Source of the DNA: Escherichia coli
GTDB taxonomy: Bacteria; Pseudomonadota; Gammaproteobacteria; Enterobacterales; Enterobacteriaceae
Length of the DNA: 51,502 nucleotides
Direction: 5' to 3' (one strand)
Assembly (NCBI RefSeq): GCF_003334255.1
Contig: NZ_QOWU01000037.1
Part shown: piece after piece, positions 1 to 1,135 of the stretch
Numbering within the stretch: the stretch's first letter is position 1
Layout: every line of letters starts with the position of its first letter
Translations under genes and position numbers: made by a program
The notes under the pieces: generated by a model
Seen by the model: the letters and a program-made list of their open reading frames with translations, nothing else
Databases searched by the model: none
Told to the model about the DNA's origin: nothing

Positions 1-304
1 ACGCGAGGCATCGTCTTAACGAGGCACCGAGGCGTCGCATTCTTCAGATGGTTCAACCCTTAAGTTAGCGCTTATGGGGATTTGCCCCCCCGGTAGAGTT
101 GCCCCTACTCCGGTTTTCGAGACCGGTCCAATCATCAAACGAAACATAAAATTAATTCACATTATGAGGAAAAGTATCTTTTTTGTACTTGTAAATTCAA
201 AGGCTTAGCCTCATTTCCCCGATGGTTTTCTCAACACTACTGCTTGTGAGCCCTTGCAATGTTCATTAATATACGTCTCACAAATAATTCATAGATATTG
301 CAAA

Positions 305-1078
305 ATGGATATTACTGAGTTTCCTTCTGGAGTAATTGAACACCTTGGCTGGTATGTATACCGATTGATTGATCCGAGGGACGGAAGCACCTTCTATGTA
401 GGGAAAGGCAAAGGTAACCGCGTATTTGCCCATATGCGCGGTGAAGTGGCAGCGACTGATGATGACGAGTTACTGAGCAACAAGCTAAAGCAAATTAGAG
501 AAATAAGGTTAGCAGGACTTGAGGTTATCCATGTCATCCATCGACACGGAATGACTGATGAAAAGACGGCGTACGAAGTTGAAGCAGCACTTATTGATGC
601 CTACCCTGGGTTAACGAATATCATGAATGGTGCTGGCAGCAATGAATTCGGCGCCGCGCATGTCAAAGAGTTGATAGCAACATATCAACCCGAAACCATA
701 ACATTTCATCATAAAGCATTAATGATTTCCGTTAACAGAAGTGCAAAGGATTCAGAGCTTTATGATGCGGTTCGATTTAGCTGGCGCATTAATGTCTCTC
801 GCGCCAGCCAAGCAGAAGTCATTCTTGCTACTGTAAGGGGGATCGTTCGAGGGGTTTTCATTGCTGATAAATGGCTCAAATCAACACGTGAAAATTTCCC
901 TACGATGAAATACTGGGACGAGGATCCGGACTTTGAGGCAACACAAAGTTCTCGCTATGGTTTTGAAGGTCGAGAAGCCCCACCTGAAATAGCAAATCTT
1001 TATCTTGGAAAAAAAATACCAGATGAATTAAGAAAAAAAGGAGCTATGTCCCCGGTCCGTTACTCACCTAATTTTTGA
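305..1078 (+). CDS. GIY-YIG domain protein (putative nuclease; function unknown)
   Basis: ORF 254..1078; N-terminal motif [29 protein letters not shown] resembles GIY-YIG; start at ATG 305 (MDITEF) preferred, ATG 254 possible; C-terminal ~170 aa unrecognised. Confidence 0.6.
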
Positions 1079-1135
1079 GTCTTTAAGTGATAAGCATAAA
1101 CCGCAGCACGATCTTGCATACGACGTGCTACGGTT

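Follow-up and report, generated by a model that had tools for sequence, protein, structure and literature searches.

The window, that is, the whole stretch of 51,502 nucleotides of Escherichia coli DNA analyzed here, is collinear at 99.9-100% with the genome of E. coli G1/2 (NZ_CP060083), except for one invertible segment. By the annotation of that genome, it carries a complete lambdoid prophage with a contractile tail module of the Mu/e14 type. The prophage is integrated at thrW, and its integrase gene is found at ~37.3-38.5 kb, adjoining this tRNA gene (tRNA-Thr CGT, 38489-38564, minus strand), which is followed by proA and proB. The e14 element of K-12 derives by deletion from a phage of this type; its pinE gene, its stfP-ymfQ-jayE region and its portal/terminase remnants match the window at 92-97.5%. 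Near the lysis cassette, an Iss/Bor-type serum-survival lipoprotein (21695-21988, plus strand) and an OmpC/NmpC-type porin (23779-24861, plus strand), both named from the G1/2 annotation, constitute further lysogen-expressed cargo of the prophage, while the right end of the window holds an IS3-family element, marked by an ALIL pseudoknot at 50966-51082 on the plus strand (Rfam RF01497, the frameshift element of this family, 121.5 bits). The left end of the window, with which we are concerned here, displays the following features:

1-75, no strand assigned: end of a degenerate insertion sequence (IS) interrupting the serU' fragment and lying outside the defence gene, delimited by matches in other genomes
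76-129, minus strand: fossil attachment core, the 3' part of the tRNA-Ser(CGA) gene serU from the T-arm to the anticodon stem, by alignment to serU
130-304, plus strand: AT-rich 5' flank travelling with the CMoRE gene, the presumed promoter region, by GC content and conservation
305-1078, plus strand: CMoRE/PD-T4-3 coding sequence, 257 amino acids plus stop, by profile, structure and RefSeq matches
1098-1136, no strand assigned: hairpin with a 13-bp stem where the CMoRE and pin genes converge, overlapping the stop codon of pin, by RNA folding
1136-1690, minus strand: pin, a PinE-type serine DNA invertase at the edge of the variable cargo slot (phrog_125, E 2.9e-96; RefSeq pinE)
1752-3480, no strand assigned: invertible tail-fibre (P-like) segment with a 21-nt inverted repeat at either end (1752-1772 and 3460-3480)

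The pin gene, whose longest open reading frame extends to 1136..1726 on the minus strand, shows 92% nucleotide identity to the K-12 pinE, with the homology ending at window position 1134. The adjacent tail-fibre segment, whose 21-nt inverted repeats read AAACGTTGGTTTGGGAGAAGC, is flipped relative to G1/2, while both of its flanks are collinear at 99.9-100%. An earlier reading of the DNA, made from the sequence only and without database searches (hereafter the sequence-only reading), had described the gene at the window's left end as convergent to pin and lying just outside the tail-fibre inversion module; this arrangement is borne out by the coordinates of both features.

The longest mechanical open reading frame for this gene spans 254..1078 on the plus strand. 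However, the real start is the ATG at 305, because both the PADLOC and the PHROG profiles align from residue 1 of the resulting 257-residue product, because RefSeq annotates the same 774-nt coding sequence in identical loci, and because only with this start does the published numbering (Y17, Y19, Y31) of a crystallized homolog fit. The N-terminus of the protein reads GWYVYRL...FYVGKG, a GIY-YIG-like motif that spans residues 15-35 and had already been recognized in the sequence-only reading. In Pfam, this region is recovered by the LEM-3_GIY-YIG model (PF22945; E 3.6e-14, residues 28-110). The match to the classical GIY-YIG model falls short of significance (E 0.47), and no NCBIfam model covers the protein. 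The C-terminal ~140 residues lack a match to Pfam, NCBIfam or any other named domain, in keeping with the earlier remark that this part resembles nothing recognizable, although its length had been overstated there as ~170 residues. The protein is divided into a GIY-YIG nuclease domain (~1-115) and a C-terminal domain for sensing 5-hydroxymethylcytosine (5hmC) or its glucosylated form (5ghmC) (~120-257), which includes Y127.

The sequence-only reading had further suggested that the gene on its own encodes an anti-phage nuclease, which might be kin to GIY-YIG defence proteins already described, and had recommended a PADLOC search. That search identifies the protein as a full-length PD-T4-3 (model PDLC04031; E 2.4e-140, 464 bits, residues 1-256 of 257 against profile positions 1-255 of 256), confirming the proposed kinship. 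The same relationship is recovered with phrog_5356 (E 2e-143) and with two pairs of PDB entries, 9U75/9U8D (E 3.7e-172) and 9U7U/9U7Z (E 1.1e-150), which are titled merely 'GIY-YIG domain-containing protein' but correspond to the CMoRE proteins of E. coli O157:H7 and APEC O1, respectively (Liu et al., Nat Commun 2026, PMC12923530). RefSeq WP_000355484.1, a widespread protein present in several unrelated genomes, is the window protein without any difference. Against the O157:H7 CMoRE (WP_000355475.1, crystallized as 9U75), a characterized single-gene type IV enzyme acting on T-even phages (PMC12923530), 253 of the 257 residues are identical (98.4%).

The system itself is not new: its name dates from 2022, both PADLOC and DefenseFinder cover it, and its structure and biochemistry were described in 2026. 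PD-T4-3, a GIY-YIG nuclease protein, came to light when the E. coli pangenome was subjected to functional selection for resistance to T4; the original isolate was ECOR68 (Vassallo et al. 2022, PMC9519451). The subsequent work showed that CMoRE proteins from O157:H7, APEC O1 and K. pneumoniae lower the plating of T2, T4 and T6 by ~10^5-fold, and that this defence is direct rather than by abortive infection, with T4 DNA being depleted and host DNA spared (PMC12923530). The enzyme binds and cuts DNA with 5hmC or glucosyl-5hmC but not DNA with cytosine or 5mC, and with Mg2+ or Mn2+ it cleaves between two modified cytosines (C N11 / N9 G), leaving 2-nt 3' overhangs (PMC12923530). Structurally, its GIY-YIG domain is nearest to that of UvrC and bears a 15-residue acidic lid whose neutralization renders the enzyme toxic, while the C-terminal domain adopts a new fold that binds 5hm-dCTP at Y127, with 5hmC contacting the main chain; function requires a tetramer (PMC12923530). 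In the native host NILS69, a clinical isolate, an independent study found that deletion of PD-T4-3 causes sensitivity to Tevenvirinae. A Capnocytophaga homolog, with 48% identity, degrades the DNA of T4 but not that of T4-GT7; at high dose, Mu DNA is degraded as well.

We examined how far these functional determinants are retained in the window protein. Relative to 9U75/WP_000355475.1 it shows four substitutions, T51A, E55D, Q169K and N197H (T51, E55, Q169 and N197 being the window residues), of which two fall in or next to the autoinhibitory loop and two in the sensor domain. All the residues tested or named in the published work (Y17, Y19, Y31, R80, V92, L96 and Y127) are kept, and R39 is likewise present; none of the four substitutions touches any of these eight positions. 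The three tyrosines of the GIYxY-YIG motif (GWY17VY19RL...FY31VGKG) are in place, as are V92 and L96 of the tetramer interface and the 5hmC-contacting Y127, with the C-terminal 130 residues differing from 9U75 at two positions. The text of the publication gives the catalytic Arg and Glu without residue numbers (PMC12923530); no substitution relative to the crystallized protein hits an Arg, or a Glu outside the acidic loop. The four consecutive acidic residues of the autoinhibitory loop read DDDE (52-55) in the window protein, compared to DDDD in O157 and DDDE in APEC O1, such that its E55 agrees with the latter allele. The architecture is that of a single-component system, with the serU' fossil on one side, the convergent pin on the other and no partner gene; no methyltransferase gene was found in window positions 1-3800. 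The combination of a nuclease and a modification sensor without a cognate methyltransferase is that of a type IV enzyme, the modification dependence itself being taken from the literature.

Taken together, the sequence relationships make it very probable that 305..1078 encodes an allele of CMoRE, first named PD-T4-3, which would act by the direct, non-abortive destruction of T-even-type genomes. The identity of the gene, the conservation of its literature-tested residues, its single-gene architecture and its genomic position are direct observations; what we infer is that its own upstream DNA drives its expression in the lysogen and that its specificity is that of the O157:H7 allele. By transfer from that allele (98.4% identical), the window protein would form a tetramer organized as a dimer of dimers, whose C-terminal domains would bind 5-hydroxymethylcytosine or glucosyl-5hmC in incoming DNA, with one dimer probably reading two modified cytosines ~21 bp apart (C N11 / N9 G). 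The N-terminal GIY-YIG domain, using Y17, Y19 and Y31 along with the catalytic Arg and Glu and Mg2+ or Mn2+, is predicted to cut between these modified cytosines to leave 2-nt 3' overhangs, while the acidic loop DDDE 52-55 would cover the active site and exclude unmodified host DNA. The expected outcome would be destruction of T-even-type genomes with a ~10^5-fold drop in the plating of T2, T4 and T6 by a non-abortive route, whereas host DNA, phages with ordinary cytosine and 5mC DNA would be spared.

We then considered the DNA around the gene for indications regarding its expression. The sequence-only reading had noted an AT-rich, promoter-like region upstream. The composition is as described, with a GC fraction of 0.40 for 76-304 against 0.515 for the prophage, but a consensus scan found no sigma-70-like site upstream of the gene at a threshold of 9/12, and 76-129 is a tRNA-Ser fragment rather than promoter DNA. 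By eye, the best candidate is a weak sigma-70 site matching at 8/12 positions, with TTGTGA (244-249) as the -35 and TAATAT (267-272) as the -10 element separated by a 17-nt spacer; direct reading finds no clear Shine-Dalgarno sequence before the ATG at 305. On the other hand, ~195 bp of upstream DNA is kept with the CMoRE gene across unrelated insertion contexts, and the flank at 130-304 hardly varies among four different contexts, one of them a prophage integrated at ssrA and devoid of pin; therefore, the gene seems to travel with its own control region. In the published experiments, the O157:H7 allele gave strong defence in BL21 from its native upstream DNA, whereas defence by the APEC O1 allele under its native promoter was weak (PMC12923530). 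Since these two alleles differ in this way, expression in the present lysogen is likely but its level is uncertain. At the other end of the gene, folding of 1070-1150 yields -20.9 kcal/mol (z = -2.93), and the hairpin at 1098-1136 may function as a two-way transcription stop; it lacks a T-run, and the terminator scan made no call between the convergent genes.

Among the alternatives to an active CMoRE system, we consider it improbable, though less so than the others, that the gene is silent or weakened, through poor expression in the lysogen or through its four substitutions, and confers little or no defence in this strain. The lack of a consensus promoter and Shine-Dalgarno sequence, the weakness of the APEC O1 allele under its native promoter, the IS inserted at 75/76, ~230 bp upstream, and the escape of one T-even relative from the native-level system in NILS69 would all be compatible with such a condition. 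However, the reading frame is intact and identical to that of WP_000355484.1 from several unrelated genomes, every literature-tested residue is kept, the upstream 195 bp are near-identical to those of the O157:H7 allele, which is active from its native upstream DNA, and the IS lies outside the conserved flank.

The remaining two alternatives are both exceedingly improbable. The gene might have been a free-standing GIY-YIG homing endonuclease of the I-TevI/Seg type that spreads itself into pin-adjacent sites, a notion to which its occurrence as a ~1-kb unit in different prophage contexts and a weak match to phrog_314 (E 0.0021) could lend themselves. That match is nevertheless marginal beside the family matches at 2e-143 and 2.4e-140, Pfam detects no homing-type DNA-binding module, and the borders of the cassette are an attachment-site fossil and the pin stop codon rather than a cleaved target site, in the setting of prophage-end cargo. 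As a near-identical protein requires 5hmC or 5ghmC and leaves host DNA intact, the homing interpretation is effectively refuted by the published biochemistry. Confident homology to a homing endonuclease or to a housekeeping repair nuclease had been named at the outset as one of the findings that would speak against a defence function; the former comes down to this marginal match, and a repair nuclease was likewise rejected, given that NCBIfam recovers no housekeeping repair nuclease family. The last alternative, an abortive-infection toxin or a nuclease whose attack on host DNA is lethal to infected cells, comes to mind because the loop-neutralized 4A mutant of the O157 protein is toxic and cuts ordinary DNA, but the acidic loop is intact in the window protein (DDDE) and there is no antitoxin-like partner gene. 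Moreover, cultures with wild-type CMoRE survive a multiplicity of infection above 1 with host DNA reads unchanged after infection, and growth at high multiplicity with phage DNA cleared has been reported for the O157 allele; a chance as slight as that of the homing endonuclease is hence all that we would grant to such a toxin.

Returning to the active CMoRE allele, its genomic setting preserves a record of an earlier attachment site. ARAGORN and an Rfam scan at gathering thresholds found no RNA gene in window positions 1-3000, and the names offered by lenient Rfam matching for the tRNA-Ser fragment (plastid 3'UTR, tmRNA) are spurious; it was revealed only through alignment to other loci together with megablast against annotated genomes. 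The serU' fragment is cut off at 75/76 by the IS and has two mismatches in the T-loop. It aligns to the intact serU gene and, with the same geometry, to the distal junction of a prophage that strain SCU-172 carries at serU. In the O157 strain TW14359 (comparison locus L009, 3483-3830), the serU' fragment at this place is complete and preceded by ~275 bp of genuine yodB-serU intergenic DNA. The intergenic DNA in TW14359 and the geometry shared with the SCU-172 junction suggest that CMoRE was the terminal gene of a former serU-integrated prophage end that is now embedded in the thrW element, with the pin-CMoRE end having probably been carried over along with flanking host DNA. The route of this transfer was perhaps an aberrant excision followed by recombination.

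Positions 1-75 are the end of an IS because the other CMoRE loci match only from base 76. They are matched solely by genomes with a frameshifted transposase immediately to the left, e.g., G1/2 (NZ_CP060083). This degenerate IS, whose transposase is given as frameshifted in RefSeq, is inserted in serU' ~230 bp upstream of the CMoRE start (window 1-75; comparison locus L001, 7922-9000) and occurs in a few genomes only; it is not part of the flank that is kept together with the CMoRE gene. The sequence-only reading had placed the gene at the end of the prophage. It is indeed the last gene before the fossil serU attachment core, but the present element is closed by a 46-bp thrW repeat that, in G1/2, is situated ~3 kb leftward of window position 1, adjoining a yagP remnant. 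Between this repeat and position 1, G1/2 has what remains of an IS, a regulator of the AraC family (YdeO-like) and a transposase gene with a frameshift. In window positions 1-1300, a search for the thrW attachment repeat returned nothing above 10 bp.

The earlier comparison with e14, in which McrA was said to occupy the same slot beside pin, is well founded: the gene order in K-12 is stfE'-pinE-mcrA-attR, and the window and e14 cease to be homologous precisely at the stop codon of pin (window 1134). The orientations differ, with mcrA being co-directional with pinE in e14 but CMoRE convergent with pin. Since both are modification-dependent restriction enzymes, the analogy between McrA and CMoRE extends to function. 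A survey of what follows pin, which had also been proposed, uncovered three unrelated type IV systems among 5,426 complete E. coli genomes: the slot is occupied by CMoRE in 577, by McrA in 330 and by a McrBC-type pair in 235. The last of these was recognized through NCBIfam (McrC scoring 348.5 bits, above the curated cut-off of 338, and the GTPase domain of McrB scoring 265.6 bits), while PADLOC did not recognize the McrBC-type cargo of strain PK5086. When the loci are compared with each other, homology breaks exactly at the pin stop codon, the slot corresponding to window 1079-1135 and to positions 7241-8413 and 614-4037 of the comparison loci L004 and L007, respectively. Thus, e14-type prophages have repeatedly placed unrelated modification-dependent nucleases at the same terminal position.

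It is conceivable, albeit doubtful, that e14-type prophages reserve the site just past the stop codon of pin for the exchange of modification-dependent restriction cassettes. The CMoRE cassette (~108-1136) would then move as a unit with part of the fossil serU attachment core, and turnover would proceed by recombination at old attachment junctions. In a minor variant of this exchange-slot proposal, the differences in the loop and sensor (T51, E55, Q169, N197) would shift specificity or leakiness. In strain GN4143 (comparison locus L005, 343-4199), a prophage integrated at ssrA and lacking pin has a small group of defence genes at its tail-fibre end, where CMoRE adjoins a type II restriction enzyme together with a cytosine methyltransferase. 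Even here the CMoRE cassette begins inside the anticodon-stem sequence of serU'.

The CMoRE gene is found intact with at least 95% nucleotide identity in 838 of the 5,426 complete E. coli genomes, and 577 of these 838 retain the CMoRE-pin junction. Among the phage records of INPHARED, megablast with the locus matched pin only and never the CMoRE gene, a result that applies to this allele at the DNA level. One further occurrence is on the 68.5-kb 'plasmid' pMTY18781-4 (NZ_AP023209.1, comparison locus L008), which has paoC, paoD, a yagP remnant, CMoRE and pinE in chromosomal order and so looks like a chromosomal fragment or an excised segment rather than a true plasmid.

On these observations, the locus can confidently be given the annotation CMoRE/PD-T4-3, denoting a type IV restriction enzyme directed against phages with hydroxymethylated DNA, while its RefSeq label still reads merely 'LEM-3-like GIY-YIG domain-containing protein'. 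Carriers of CMoRE should resist many T-even-type therapeutic phages, unless the phage has ordinary cytosine or a counter-defence. Inversion of the homologous P segment of e14 blocks the adsorption of T2 (2025 NAR, PMC12529663); by this analogy, the prophage end may carry two anti-T-even functions side by side, namely CMoRE and the adjoining invertible segment. The mildly new material is confined to the genomic context, namely the fossil junction of serU and the finding that unrelated type IV enzymes recur in the pin-distal slot.

Among the known systems, those of the McrBC type found beside pin remnants, for instance in PK5086, share with CMoRE the pin-distal slot and the class of modification-dependent restriction, but are two-gene, GTP-dependent AAA+ systems with no sequence relationship to it. 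McrA (EcoKMcrA) of the K-12 e14 likewise occupies the slot beyond the pin stop codon and is, like CMoRE, a single-protein type IV enzyme with separate sensor and nuclease domains. However, it is not homologous: its HNH nuclease lies at the C-terminus, preceded by an N-terminal 5mC-binding domain, and its targets are 5mC sites (C5mCGG). As searches of Pfam, NCBIfam and PADLOC gave no HNH match in the window protein, its membership in the McrA family is ruled out, the two having only position and functional class in common. The N-terminal GIY-YIG domain of UvrC and the LEM-3 (ANKLE1)-like domains possess the same catalytic fold as the CMoRE nuclease domain, UvrC being the best structural match and LEM-3_GIY-YIG the best Pfam model. 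In contrast to both, CMoRE possesses the additional Y19, has an acidic stretch of 15 residues inserted between helices alpha2 and alpha3, and ends in an unrelated sensor domain; it has no role in repair. The closest relatives are the CMoRE family members themselves, which also include the APEC O1 protein (WP_000353910.1, PDB 9U7U/9U7Z). With the O157:H7 CMoRE (WP_000355475.1, 9U75/9U8D), the window allele shares the length of 257 residues, the two-domain architecture, the single-gene organization and the neighbouring pinE. It is set apart from it by the four substitutions and by the upstream IS insertion at 75/76, which is common to G1/2 (NZ_CP060083) and two further RefSeq genomes; in all other respects the two are the same.
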